Origin: a virus
Taxonomy: Duplodnaviria; Caudoviricetes
DNA: 42,649 nucleotides
Virus record (IMG/VR): IMGVR_UViG_3300050151_000036
Span: 1-42,649 of that record
Strand: one strand, 5' to 3'
Both the position numbers and the translations under genes were made by a program. Below the pieces are notes generated by a model that worked only from the letters and a program-made list of their open reading frames with translations, ran no database searches and had not been told where the DNA came from. Position 1 is the first letter of the stretch. Each line of letters begins with the position of its first letter. This document shows positions 3,739 through 22,550 of this stretch, piece after piece.

Positions 3739-3768
3739 TTGACAGCATGGTCTCTTTTGTGGTACTAA
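3739..3768 (+). promoter_or_regulatory. Possible sigma70 promoter
   Basis: TTGACA (3739-3744), 18 nt, TG-G-TACTAA; same CCTATTGACA context as the promoters at 3163 and 19148. Confidence 0.5.
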
Positions 3769-3857
3769 CATGGCCCATAGTCTAGAGTCAACACCCTAAA
3801 AATACCGACACAAAGAGCGTTTTCTTCTATATAGTCGGTGTTGTCGATGGTTGACTC

Positions 3858-3870
3858 CGCTCTTTAACAA
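3858..3870 (+). promoter_or_regulatory. boxA antitermination element 1
   Basis: CGCTCTTTAACAA matches the rrn/lambda nut boxA consensus; directly follows a long hairpin (3785-3857). Confidence 0.75.
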
Positions 3871-3924: not shown

Positions 3925-3953
3925 TTGACAAGGTTATTACCCGGTGTTAAAGT
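3925..3953 (+). promoter_or_regulatory. Sigma70 early promoter
   Basis: TTGACA (3925-3930), 17 nt, TAAAGT with extended TGn. Confidence 0.75.
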
Positions 3954-4020
3954 AGTGACAGGTTTGAAGGTTTACAGGTTTGACAGTGTTAGTGCACTGG
4001 ACTACCGCCGACCTTCCACC

Positions 4021-4033
4021 CGTTCTTTAACAA
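4021..4033 (+). promoter_or_regulatory. boxA antitermination element 2
   Basis: CGTTCTTTAACAA, one mismatch from element 1, about 70 nt downstream of the 3925 promoter. Confidence 0.7.
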
Positions 4034-4039
4034 TTTACA

Positions 4040-4680
4040 CTTGCATCCTGACCCGCGAAGGGCGTCTTTCGCAGCGGGTTGCCCCTAAGGGGACTAACAA
4101 GGCACTGCAAACCTTAGCCCTCGCTACATGCGAGACGGTGACAAATCGGGCATGGGCCGATTGTAAATAACCGGGGCTGTAAATCTAGAATGCAAGCATC
4201 GTCGGGAGACGTGGCCCATAGTCTAGGCTAATGCTCACGATATTTATGACGATTAATCCCATACGTGGTCATCTATACTTATGCTAAGGCCACTACTATG
4301 TGCATGGTGCATACTCGCCAAGTACCTAAACACATAGCATCAATCCCCCCGCTGTGAAGCGTCGGGATAAGGCAACCTAACGGGTTGCGTTTGAATTATC
4401 TGATTTAATAAACATCCATTTCGCTGTAATTTTAAGTATGTCAGCACTGGATTGTGTCACCTATAGTCCTAGGTTTAGCCCGTAGCATGGGTCGGACTCC
4501 GCCAGTAAGTGTGTATATTCCCCGGGTTTCTTAGTTGAATATGCACAACCCCTAAAGCGCGTGAAACACAATCCACCTAGCGACTGAGCATTAAAACACA
4601 CGAGGTGTTTGATTCCGTACATATATCGGCCGGTGTATGCGGATTATTTCGGGTAATTCAAAGGCAATCCCGCCTAATTT
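4040..4680 (+). ncRNA. Candidate large structured non-coding RNA (family unassigned)
   Basis: No credible ORF. Many helices, including long-range 4229-4237/4585-4593, 4390-4403/4649-4662, 4448-4457/4566-4575; GNRA-capped hairpins; G-U pairs favour the + strand. Confidence 0.6.
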
Positions 4681-4697
4681 GATTAAAGGAATTAATC

Positions 4698-5345
4698 ATG
4701 TCCCATGCATTGGCTACCCTGGCAGTGGGTGCCTCAAACGTGCTGAATGCAAAGCACGAAAACCTCACGTTCGGCAAGCGCATCGCTACGCTGGACGACA
4801 AAATGTTGGGCAGCATGCTTGCCAATGAAGTGATGGCAACGGTGCAAACCCAAGGGCAGGTGTGGCGTGGTTTCGCCATGCGGATTATCAACACGAACCA
4901 TGAGGCCCGCGCTGCGTTCGTTCAGGCCATCGACTCCACGCTCAAGGAAATGCGTGGTGCGAATACCATCGACGATACCGTGGCGGCCAAGGATGCGAAG
5001 AAGCGCGTCAACACAGCCACTGTGGAAGTGTCCAAGCTGCGCATCGTGGCAAAGGCATGGAACAGTGGTGCCACCATCCCCGGCTTGGTGGAATATGTGC
5101 GCCTTGCACTGAAGCAACCCACGGCCGAGCTGGAACACATCGGCTATACCATGCTGGTGGAATACGCTCGCACCTTCAGCCAGTCGAAGGCCGGTCGTCC
5201 GGCAAAGGCATGGGCAGAGAAGCTGGGTGACTGGTTGGACAAGAATGCCCCGGATGAAGACGATGCCAAGGGCAACGCACTGCGGGAGAAGTTCATTGCG
5301 ATGTTGAATGGTGAGCAGCCCCCGAAGTTGATGGCCTTGATGTAA
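4698..5345 (+). CDS. First early gene, unknown function (215 aa)
   Basis: Strong RBS TAAAGGA, GC-rich codon usage, helical composition. Confidence 0.8.
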   Translation: MSHALATLAVGASNVLNAKHENLTFGKRIATLDDKMLGSMLANEVMATVQTQGQVWRGFAMRIINTNHEARAAFVQAIDSTLKEMRGANTIDDTVAAKDAKKRVNTATVEVSKLRIVAKAWNSGATIPGLVEYVRLALKQPTAELEHIGYTMLVEYARTFSQSKAGRPAKAWAEKLGDWLDKNAPDEDDAKGNALREKFIAMLNGEQPPKLMALM

Positions 5346-5402
5346 CATCATCGGTTAAGGGTATTAACAAGATTAATTGTTAGTATCCTTACCAATGCTG
5401 TT
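5344..5402 (+). other. Long intergenic hairpin, candidate RNase III processing site
   Basis: TAAGGGTATTAACAA pairs with TTGTTAGTATCCTTA (with G-U pairs) and extends imperfectly outward; no U-tract. Confidence 0.5.
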
Positions 5403-6043: not shown

Positions 6044-6111
6044 TGTCGTATAAACTGATGAGTTGCCGACATTAAATGCAACGAAACCATTATGAAAATT
6101 AATGGTATTTA
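6043..6111 (+). ncRNA. Type I hammerhead ribozyme with loop II pseudoknot
   Basis: CTGATGA (6055-6061), stem II GTTGC/GCAAC, GAAA (6083-6086), stem III CCATTA/TAATGG, GTA cleavage triplet (6105-6107), stem I TAAA/TTTA; loop II CGACAT complementary to ATGTCG (6043-6048). Confidence 0.88.
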
Positions 6112-19248: not shown

Positions 19249-20493
19249 TTGAATAAAGAACTATTACTACTATTAATACTATTAAATAAAGTATCATATA
19301 ATCAATATATAAATGATATTGATACTACTTATCTTAAAGAGCATCATAGAGAAATATCTTATCTCTATAAAGTCCTACAAGACTTACATAAACAATATGA
19401 CCATGATTTAACATTAGCTGATTTACAAGCTGCTTTCTTTGTAGCATATCCTGATGCTGATAATCTTATCTACAACGCACTGTTTAAAACGCTCTATGAG
19501 AGCAATATTACTGCTGATGTAGGTCAGGGTATCATTAGACAAATTAAAGCCAAGAAAGCGGCTTTAAAGCTCTCTGAGAAGGCTTTTAAAGTAGCACAAG
19601 GTCTTGAAGATGTAGACTCACTAACATCATTCTACAATGATGAATTTGTTAAGGTCGATCATCAGGAAGAACAAGAGTTTGAGTTAGATAATGTTTCTCA
19701 GGATTTAACAGAAATAATTGATGATGTTTATAAAGAATCAGGACTACGTTGGCGGTTGGATTGCCTTAACAAATCATTAGGTAGTCTACGTAAAGGAGAC
19801 TTTGGTTTTATCATGGCACGCCCGGAAACGGGTAAGACTACTTTCCTTACCAGTGAAGTAACACATATGCTAATGAATAGCACTGGTCCAGTTATTCACT
19901 TGAATAATGAAGAGCAAGGAAATAAAGTAATGCTACGATACTATCAGGCATTCTTCGGTGTGACTATGCAACAATTGATGGCAAGTCCTAAGAAGTATCG
20001 TGATGCCTTTCAAGAAGCAACTCAAGGTCGATTCTATCTCTTTGATTCTGCAATCATTACTAAATGGCAAGTTGAAAAGATTGTTAAGCGATTAAATCCT
20101 ATTTTAGTTATCTATGACCAACTCACAAAGATTCGAGGATTTAAAGCAGACCGTCCAGACCTTATCCTTGGAGAAACTTTCCAATGGGCTAGAGAACTTG
20201 CTAAAGGCAGTCATGCAGCCATCGGAGTATCACAAGCTGACGGATCAGCAGAAAATGTACGTTACCTCACTATGGAGCACGTTGCCAACGCTAAAACTGC
20301 TGTGCAAGCTGAAGCAGACTGGATTCTAGGTATCGGTAAGAGTCATGATATGGAAAAAGCTAGGTTTCTATCCATTAGTAAGAATAAACTTCTAGGCGAC
20401 GCCGATAGTATTCCTGATCTGAGGCACGGAAAATTTGAAGTGTTAATAGAAGCTCCCATCGCGAGGTATTTGGATGTCATTAAATTCGCTTGA
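19249..20493 (+). CDS. Replicative DnaB-like (SF4) helicase
   Basis: Walker A ARPETGKTT, NNEE, VIYDQL, VSQA, EAD.ILGIG, KNK; TTG start. Confidence 0.9.
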   Translation: MNKELLLLLILLNKVSYNQYINDIDTTYLKEHHREISYLYKVLQDLHKQYDHDLTLADLQAAFFVAYPDADNLIYNALFKTLYESNITADVGQGIIRQIKAKKAALKLSEKAFKVAQGLEDVDSLTSFYNDEFVKVDHQEEQEFELDNVSQDLTEIIDDVYKESGLRWRLDCLNKSLGSLRKGDFGFIMARPETGKTTFLTSEVTHMLMNSTGPVIHLNNEEQGNKVMLRYYQAFFGVTMQQLMASPKKYRDAFQEATQGRFYLFDSAIITKWQVEKIVKRLNPILVIYDQLTKIRGFKADRPDLILGETFQWARELAKGSHAAIGVSQADGSAENVRYLTMEHVANAKTAVQAEADWILGIGKSHDMEKARFLSISKNKLLGDADSIPDLRHGKFEVLIEAPIARYLDVIKFA

Positions 20494-20647
20494 TGATAAT
20501 GAATTTGCACGTTATTTAACACAGCATTTATACGATAATGATTATTGGGTTTCTGGTGGTCCAATTTCAGGTATATATCCAGAAATATACATAGACCAAG
20601 ATGTTTTATATTTAGTTATTAAAGATTTTATGGATAAATTACCTTGA
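20474..20647 (+). CDS. Small hypothetical protein (57 aa; absent from track)
   Basis: GAGG RBS; fills the gap between helicase and polymerase and overlaps both. Confidence 0.5.
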   Translation: MSLNSLDDNEFARYLTQHLYDNDYWVSGGPISGIYPEIYIDQDVLYLVIKDFMDKLP

Positions 20648-21822
20648 ACATATGCATTGACGTTGAAACTACAATTAAGAATAAAGGCCACGCATTTGAT
20701 CCAGATAACAAATTAGTTAGTTATGCTATATCTAGTCCTAGTAGTTCTAGTAATTTCTTGTACTGCACAGACCCAGGCTTTAGACGTAACGTCTTCTGGG
20801 GATTGGATGCGAGACATACAGTTGTGGGCTTTAATTTTAAGTTTGATTTGCATTGGCTATTTCGTGAAGGACATACTTTAAATCCTGATACTAAGATATG
20901 GGATGTTCAATTAGCAGAATTTATTATTAGTGGGCAGACTGCTTCTTTCATGTCACTTAATGAGACATTAGCAAGCTACCAATTACCTTTGAAGCATGAT
21001 GCAGTGAAAGAATACTGGGATCAGGGTATTGATACTAATGATATTCCTGTCATATTATTGGAAGAGTATAATGTCTATGACACTGAAGGCACGTTGGCTG
21101 CGATGCAGCAACAGCAAGAACTTATGTCACCCAAACAAATTAAACTTGTATATCTGCTGGGTGAAGACTTGAAGACGTTGCAGGATGCAGAATTTAATGG
21201 AATTAAATGGGATGCTAAAAAAGCTAAGACTAAACTTGAGAAGTATAAGGCCGATGTGGCCAGTATCGAACGAAGATTGGCTAGTTATCTACCTAATATC
21301 CAGCATGGTAGCTTCAATTTCGACAGTGGCGATCATCTTAGCTGCTTGTTGTACGGTGGTGAGATAAACTTTGAGTATACGGTACCTGAGAGCGCGCTTT
21401 ACAAGAGTGGCCCTAATAAGGGTGAGGAGTATGTTAGGAATCGACACTACAAGGAAAATGTGTACTTTGGCCCCAGATTTACACCTCTTGCGAACACAGA
21501 AGTTAAAAAGACTAAAGGAATCCCAAACGTTACGACGAGGTACTACCAAGTTGACGCACCGACTCTCTCACAACTGAAGCCACGATTAAAGCCAAATAAA
21601 GAGTTACTAGTCTTACTCCAAGAACGTTCTGATAAGCAAAAGATTATAGAAATGATTGAAAGTATTGAAAAAACTAGAACTACTCTAAACTGGCAAGATG
21701 ATTTGTTACACCCACAATTTAATCAAAACATTGTGATTACAGGTAGACTATCTTCTAGCAAACCAAACATGCAAAATACTCCATTAGAAGTTGATGAACT
21801 ATTAATTAGTAGATATGATTAA
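20644..21822 (+). CDS. Family A DNA polymerase, part 1 (3'-5' exonuclease and thumb)
   Basis: ExoI IDVETT, ExoII GFNFKFDL, ExoIII YNVYD; ends just after TGRLSSSKPNMQN. Confidence 0.9.
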   Translation: MNICIDVETTIKNKGHAFDPDNKLVSYAISSPSSSSNFLYCTDPGFRRNVFWGLDARHTVVGFNFKFDLHWLFREGHTLNPDTKIWDVQLAEFIISGQTASFMSLNETLASYQLPLKHDAVKEYWDQGIDTNDIPVILLEEYNVYDTEGTLAAMQQQQELMSPKQIKLVYLLGEDLKTLQDAEFNGIKWDAKKAKTKLEKYKADVASIERRLASYLPNIQHGSFNFDSGDHLSCLLYGGEINFEYTVPESALYKSGPNKGEEYVRNRHYKENVYFGPRFTPLANTEVKKTKGIPNVTTRYYQVDAPTLSQLKPRLKPNKELLVLLQERSDKQKIIEMIESIEKTRTTLNWQDDLLHPQFNQNIVITGRLSSSKPNMQNTPLEVDELLISRYD

Positions 21823-22550
21823 TGCTAGTCAATGTAGATATTAAGGGGCTTGAAGTTGTTGTAGCTGCTGAATTAAGTGGGGATAAAGTATTAAAACAGG
21901 AGATTATAGATAAAGTAGACATTCACGACACTAACCGTGTACGTTTTGGCCTCGGGGAAGGCAAGCCCGGTAGGTTAGTTGCTAAGATTCTGAAGTTTCG
22001 GATCATTTATGGAGGTGGTGCGTACTCATTTGCACATGATTCTGATTTTACTTCTGTTAGCACCAGTGAGAAGTTTTGGCAAGGTATTATTGATGAGTAC
22101 TACACAAAGTATTCCGGTGTAAAGAAATGGCATGACTCTATTGTTGAGCAAGCCAAACTTACTGGATATTTAGAAATACCTTCAGGTAGGTACTTTGAAT
22201 TCAAACCATTTAAGAATGCTTGGGGTTATCGTTGGCCTGAAACTACTATTAAAAACTATCCTGTCCAGGGGTTCGGGGCAGACCTTGTAATGCTTGCAAG
22301 GATTGACTTCTGGAAGAAGTTCAAAGCATCCGGTTTAGAAGGATTATTCATTCAAACAGTGCATGACTCTCTAGTAGTTGATACACCAAGTAAAAATGTT
22401 GAGATAGTTGCAAAAATGTTGCAAGAAAGTATTGCAAAAGTCCCGGAATTATGCTATACTAATTGGGATTACAAATTCTCACTACCAATGACTAGTGAGA
22501 TTCTTGTTGGACCAAACAAAAAGGATTTAAAAGAGTATGTCATTATTTAG
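21822..22550 (+). CDS. Family A DNA polymerase, part 2 (palm and fingers)
   Basis: Motif A VDIKGLE, motif B R..AK..F..IYG, NYPVQG, motif C VHDS. Confidence 0.9.
   Translation: MLVNVDIKGLEVVVAAELSGDKVLKQEIIDKVDIHDTNRVRFGLGEGKPGRLVAKILKFRIIYGGGAYSFAHDSDFTSVSTSEKFWQGIIDEYYTKYSGVKKWHDSIVEQAKLTGYLEIPSGRYFEFKPFKNAWGYRWPETTIKNYPVQGFGADLVMLARIDFWKKFKASGLEGLFIQTVHDSLVVDTPSKNVEIVAKMLQESIAKVPELCYTNWDYKFSLPMTSEILVGPNKKDLKEYVII
22432..22460 (+). promoter_or_regulatory. Internal sigma70 promoter upstream of SSB
   Basis: TTGCAA-17 nt-TATACT with extended TGn, inside the polymerase 3' end. Confidence 0.6.

Follow-up and report, generated by a model that had tools for sequence, protein, structure and literature searches.

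The window analyzed here spans a complete virus record (42,649 nt). Its head and lysis genes point leftward, starting from 3022; the early genes, those for amidoligase/glutamine amidotransferase and those of replication point rightward, starting from 4698, and the record also has three tRNAs. This two-arm plan is like that of the LUZ24-like phages, described in the available part of PMC3517423 as users of host sigma70 promoters. The closest cultured terminase belongs to an Alcaligenes phage (52.7% over 77% of the protein). Relatives were gathered via the first early gene, the terminase and the amidotransferase, and 21 related loci and their leaders were compared; a terminase-alignment scan of the genome collection returned mainly distant prophages, and blastn of the structured region and of both copies of the cargo motif described below gave no real match among annotated phages. 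The product of the first early gene, gene 4698, has no Pfam, no PHROG and no usable Atlas match and is a candidate host-takeover protein.

Directly after the CCA end of the tRNA-Leu, positions 6044-6111 (+) hold a predicted type I hammerhead ribozyme fold that scores below the Rfam threshold, with an intact core (6055-6061), a 5-bp stem II, a 6-bp stem III and a predicted cut after 6107; the stem II loop has its complement at 6044-6048. L143/L061, L149, L091 and L171 carry similar folds, and phage hammerheads and such pseudoknots are already known (PMC3088659, in part).

Architecture of the early leader

The structured ~500 nt ahead of gene 4698 make up the final two-thirds of a leader of ~740 nt, which lies behind a predicted sigma70-type promoter and a boxA (Table 1). 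This leader has two features of an rrn-type leader, namely a boxA shortly downstream of a predicted sigma70 promoter and a 24-bp stem around 235 nt. Positions 4021-4035 are identical at 15 of 15 bases to the boxA of the 16S-23S spacer in G001 (L268), and 16 of the 21 loci have a boxA-like word in the 1,300 nt that precede their gene-4698 homolog, against 1 of 21 in the downstream control; three of the five loci without such a word have less than 550 bases of upstream sequence. The -35 element and the start of the promoter spacer are shared by L007. The promoter and boxA that delimit the unit were absent from the original prediction, as was the processing-type character of the stem.

Table 1. 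Features of the early leader and its surroundings, in window coordinates
Feature	Position	Strand	Remarks
First boxA-like element	3858..3870	+	One mismatch against the 4021-4033 element
Predicted sigma70-type promoter with TG extension	3925..3953	+	10/12 in a consensus scan; predicted start near 3960
rrn-type boxA	4021..4033	+	Word match to rRNA-spacer boxA
Variable module	4114..4293	+	Replaced in close relatives; fold z -0.45
GGGA tetraloop hairpin	4200-4211	+	Within variable module
5' strand of proposed pseudoknot	4229-37	+	Within variable module
Hairpin	4265-4293	+	Within variable module
Hairpin with invariant CAUGG/CCUAAA internal loop	4296..4337	+	Covaries in five phages
GUGA-tetraloop-capped hairpin	4343..4368	+	Fold z -3.79 for 4338-4392
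Short hairpin directly 5' of long stem	4372..4388	+	3' strand motif recurs
5' arm of long processing-type stem	4390..4409	+	Pairs with 4642-4662
Cargo RNA motif, irregular rod with three conserved internal loops	4421..4603	+	One homolog, L010; not in Rfam
Hairpin between cargo and 3' arm	4614..4643	+	Predicted fold only; no homolog seen
3' arm of long stem and conserved 8-base tail	4642..4670	+	Tail follows stem in relatives
First early gene, 215 aa, phage-clade-specific family	4698..5345	+	36 proteins, itself among them, at E<=0.001
Second long A+U-rich intergenic hairpin, same processing type	5353..5392	+	z -5.95; 0/200 shuffles as stable

Four parts make up the leader as a mosaic: the upstream module, the hairpin 4296-4337, the long stem and the cargo. 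Across the relatives these parts are separate and differently ordered, and they occur as a full set in no related locus. In contigs of close relatives, 4294-4685 is kept with 2 differences, and the letters before 4294 and after 4113 are unlike those of the window. Across contigs, differences within 4095-4664 number 0-4 per 151-224 nt, and across the gene 11-13 per 151-267 nt. The sequencing runs listed as holders include no RNA run, an outcome without bearing on expression.

Other leaders carry modules of their own. A T-loop-containing module that the window lacks is present in 6 of the 21 related leaders (L004, L006, L010, L140, L149 and L157), and Rfam gave no match in the leaders of L004, L006 or L010. 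Downstream of boxA, L148 and L150 have in common a structured module of a separate kind, in which long stems are nested, and just 3' of the L150 leader lies an ORF that encodes a long Cys-Thr-Xaa repeat tract. A promoter-proximal segment is common to L010 (527-690) and L067 (4979-4817, minus strand; E 4.5e-8) and was not found in the window. The window has an 18-nt direct repeat (3768-3785 and 4209-4226, 17 identical letters), possibly a DNA site, with no other copy in the window or the loci.

Folding of the leader and its separable modules

The original prediction put 4197-4697 forward as a candidate for a single ornate, multi-pseudoknotted RNA without a credible ORF, and the underlying observation is confirmed in part. 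Plus-strand ORFs inside the region reach 25-30 codons, plus a 63-codon frame that enters gene 4698, and no Rfam match was found in 4197-4697 at E<=10. The region also folds better than shuffled sequence, a check the prediction had named, at -153.8 kcal/mol (z -3.62, 0 of 100 shuffles equally stable; reverse strand, z -2.36). The signal is located in 4294-4670 (z -4.82), and the variable module folds no better than its shuffles. Every long-range complementarity that had been listed is present: 4229-37/4585-93 (9/9 pairs), 4390-4403/4649-62 (14/14, 2 G-U), 4421-26/4578-83 (6/6), 4448-57/4566-75 (10/10) and 4511-20/4537-46 (10/10, one G-U), as is a possible pairing of the hairpin loop 4275-81 with 4433-39 through 7 Watson-Crick pairs. 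Among 300 shuffles, three perfect long-range helices of at least 9 bp arise in 1% and one in 29%, so the first pseudoknot is unremarkable by itself. Pair probabilities in the three nested helices lie mostly at 0.8-1.0 (lowest 0.56), and these helices are confirmed; the multi-pseudoknot reading is not, since the two crossing helices, together with 4421-26/4578-83, compete for strands used by the nested fold. A pairing with the ribosome-binding region of gene 4698 does exist (4251-57/4691-97), at 7 bp rather than the 10 foreseen; it is made of A+U and lies inside the module that relatives replace.

The region consists of folded pieces that are conserved separately, and is not a single giant knotted RNA. 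The small GNRA hairpin of the variable module recurs in L007, L064, L089, L139 and L152. Hairpin 4296-4337 is found in the window and in 4 of the 21 related leaders (L004, L006, L007 and L143) with two-sided changes in 7 of 10 pairs and 89.8% of cells paired, a value as high in none of 500 shuffles; this alignment, A6, excludes the receptor-like hairpins of L141, L089, L009 and L140, which lack the exact motif. Its internal loop resembles the 11-nt GNRA-tetraloop receptor, with A-C here where the receptor consensus has G-U. With the GAAA-tetraloop 11-nt receptor (PMC2275092, available part) it shares an invariant asymmetric internal loop, tandem G-C pairs and a covarying hairpin, whereas the nearby tetraloops are GUGA and GGGA rather than GAAA and docking is putative. 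The GUGA-capped hairpin is also found in L143 and L152.

A stem of 14 pairs or more is present in each of the 16 leaders folded. In the window the long stem has 24 bp counting the outer pairs and encloses 235 nt, with pair probabilities of 0.87-1.0 over 4390-4403. The positions that vary between strains, 4405, 4647 and 4648 (low-depth contigs), are all within its 2x2 internal loop, which the variants at 4647 and 4648 would close. The motif of the 3' strand of hairpin 4372-4388 precedes the long stem in L004, L005, L006 and L089, and the 8-base tail follows it in L004, L005 and L006, with an altered version in L089; the order of short hairpin, long stem and tail is common to the window and these four leaders, with arm sequences that are unrelated. 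That the conserved 3' motif is a repeated DNA site was rejected, since the window has a single exact copy, with near-matches at chance level.

What lies between the arms is variable. Comparable stems in relatives enclose a short loop or an ORF (41 bp around 104 codons in L007, 27 bp around 64 codons in L008, 28 bp around 81 codons in L142), and in the window the stem encloses RNA. One relative appears to carry a short insert in place of 4409-4640, as suggested by the overlapping loose ends of two low-depth contigs from two runs.

The cargo motif

The cargo of the window has one homolog, at 720-873 of the distant phage L010, first detected by nhmmer, which folds alike when folded independently. 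The local alignment of the two scores 103.8, above all 300 shuffles, and a covariance model built from the window only recovers the full-length L010 copy with 43.9 bits (E 7e-9) as its only match in 74 sources (999,137 bases); a fuzzy motif scan of 143 sources again returned the window and L010 alone. In an alignment fitted to the structure, 34 pairs are comparable, 18 of them identical, 13 with two-sided changes, 1 with a one-sided change and 2 broken, and of the 22 pairs common to both independent folds 9 have two-sided changes. Since there are two known members, this covariation amounts to one pairwise comparison. Conserved letters concentrate in the three internal loops and adjoining short helices, and 4424-4602 folded alone is no more stable than shuffles (z -1.31). 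The L010 copy is also closed by a stem and sits elsewhere in its leader relative to boxA and the gene.

Neither copy has a match over the motif in Rfam 15, and the wider searches gave no third member: the two-sequence model found none in 100 sources and none in 151 genomes of one betaproteobacterial order (a search run with no positive control), and three pattern scans of viral contigs returned no homolog among 39 loci (36 of them one unrelated repeated sequence), among 9 loci (with a gap range of 92-122 that misses the window's own spacing of ~126) or among 26 loci. No paper listed in the literature searches describes the cargo motif, or leaders headed by a boxA for this phage group; passages of the viral candidate-RNA survey PMC10690425 and of bioRxiv 10.64898/2026.09.22.753630 have nothing on the motif, and the supplements of the former might hold pieces. 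What is distinctive here is the exchangeable cargo slot together with the motif within it, which is absent from Rfam 15.

Some other identities for the cargo or the leader were tried and rejected. A 16S rRNA mimic scored no better than shuffles (26 to 199 of 200 as high in all 8 comparisons), antisense to tRNAs gave 12/13 matches for 3 of 726 leader 13-mers against 6 of 726 in the coding control (91 tRNAs), and a group I or permuted intron was rejected by inspection.

Proposed function and competing explanations

The reading we prefer, to which we give an even chance of being right, is that boxA assists transcription of the leader and that the host's RNase III would then cut the stem and free a ~240-nt RNA with a role in trans, probably through binding of a protein by its internal loops. 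Host sigma70 polymerase would start near 3960, and the boxA would load the Nus complex for passage through ~740 untranslated bases; the promoter and boxA motifs themselves are present, and their use is what they suggest. The leader then folds as independent nested modules, as covariation shows. The 21-24-bp stem 4390-4409/4642-4662 would have the role that leader-trailer helices have in rRNA and processing signals in T7 early RNA, and by analogy with these, RNase III-type cutting would release the ~240-nt RNA and leave a new 5' end ~40 bases ahead of gene 4698. The cargo would be an optional accessory gene, since in relatives a short loop or a small ORF takes its place within comparable stems, and its gene-like role is further suggested by its differing position in the two phages. 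If the cargo behaves as such a gene, then a trans-acting decoy or scaffold would be likelier than a cis switch, and it would probably bind a host or phage protein through the conserved internal loops; the choice of a trans role is the weakest step of this scheme.

Two known systems resemble the proposed leader. Bacterial rRNA operon leaders and spacers, in the accessible part of PMC10250234, share with it a host-type promoter, a spacer-identical boxA and a long helix bracketing structured RNA, and there RNase III cuts the leader-trailer helices and boxA recruits the complex. As a caution, Nus factors serve at rRNA loci mainly as a folding aid and are dispensable there against Rho, and they can repress (PMC5725501, in part). 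The present leader differs in belonging to a phage early operon, in having as cargo an uncatalogued 180-nt motif that is replaced in relatives by an ORF or nothing, and in that boxB and boxC were not identified in it; Nus binding and RNase III cutting are read here from motif and geometry. RNase III determinants are degenerate, and the stem is a putative substrate by its geometry. T7 RNase III signals take the form of simple hairpins, whereas the stem here encloses a folded RNA of about 230 nt. The likeness to the T7 early signals lies in the long imperfect intergenic stems (4390-4409/4642-4662 and 5353-5392); T7 early RNA has five RNase III processing signals, and the ideal substrate of the enzyme is two helical turns, with cellular ones often below 20 bp (PMC3867540, available part).

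We would extend this scheme, tentatively, to the leader as an rRNA-style cassette with exchangeable cargo, either a mini-mRNA or a small RNA, in which the 180-base cargo founds a new class of trans-acting phage RNA that is made in the first minutes of infection and disarms or redirects a host protein. If so, lytic phages without a polymerase of their own would take over two host rRNA signals, boxA and bracket-helix processing, for the production of accessory non-coding RNAs, RNA genes and ORFs would be swapped in one slot, hidden phage RNA genes could be found by the rule of looking inside bracket stems, and a short, cheap construct would suffice for testing one phage RNA gene.

The most serious alternative, which we consider somewhat unlikely, is that the modules act in cis only, stabilizing the early transcript, adding antitermination or switching folds. 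All of them do sit in a leader, and in the switch version 4229-37 and the 4275-81 loop would capture both strands of the cargo closing helix. The crossing helices take exactly both strands of one nested helix, a coincidence found for both partners in 0.12% of 5000 shuffles of 4114-4385 and for the 9-bp partner in 0.7% (with targets picked post hoc), but L010 keeps this arrangement poorly, with 5 of 9 pairs left in the first helix and, in the second, no more than three Watson-Crick pairs in a row. Loop penalties aside, the crossing duplexes gain more (-10.3 and -3.8 kcal/mol) than the 8.2 kcal/mol that it costs to free the strands, whereas the compensatory changes at 4433-4593 and 4434-4592, which fall in the would-be pseudoknot strands, favor the nested helix. 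Close relatives moreover swap the upstream partner region and leave the cargo nearly unchanged, and in the window and L010 the cargo is placed differently with respect to boxA and the gene. One relative's replacement does hold a 7-mer able to pair with 4433-39 using one G-U, within the 30 of 113-203 loose letters visible. Covariation, another check proposed at the outset, thus upholds the nested pairs, in L010 and in hairpin 4296-4337, and neither pseudoknot; the two pseudoknots are possibly a lineage-specific alternative fold, and not a conserved core.

That the region is instead one ~500-base ornate RNA with several pseudoknots, of the GOLLD/ROOL kind, we hold to be improbable. The stability of the whole region, a receptor-like loop and GNRA hairpins that imply tertiary packing, and a phage location with tRNAs 1.3 kb downstream are all as such an RNA would have them, and with GOLLD and ROOL (RF02032, RF03087; PMC12286853, in part) it shares phage encoding, heavy folding and nearby tRNA genes. 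It differs from them in matching no model, in lacking a conserved core of several pseudoknots and in having parts that relatives exchange. In this record neither the ROOL (RF03087) covariance model, which also matched nothing in the control genomes, nor the conserved 3' region of GOLLD (RF02032) gave a match at E<=10; covarying pseudoknots of the GOLLD/ROOL type were not found, L010 siding with the nested pairs. The suggestion of a diverged member of these classes is weakened by the missing model matches and by parts that occur apart and reordered. That of a functional RNA survives insofar as the region looks functional, is structured, non-coding and absent from Rfam, and is not supported by the relatives where it posits a single ornate multi-pseudoknotted molecule. 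What is real is a structured, uncatalogued RNA module, of smaller size and with fewer knots than first proposed, which sits within an early leader of rRNA style.

It is very improbable that the cargo is a ribozyme core or relic, such as a group I-like one or a new self-cleaving class, given that its invariant internal loops on a covarying rod, and the type I hammerhead folds of its clade (the window and four other phages), are set against a region with no Rfam ribozyme or intron match, group I-like words that by inspection are misordered and not common to L010, and no evident conserved end like a cleavage site.

Two further features of the window may be recorded. A near-identical ribosome-binding word stands at window positions 4683, 5624, 7243, 7615 and 13850, and the DNA polymerase is encoded by two adjacent ORFs, 20644-21822 and 21822-22550, an arrangement also found in MW202796 (site listed as 20493-20644, 21822).
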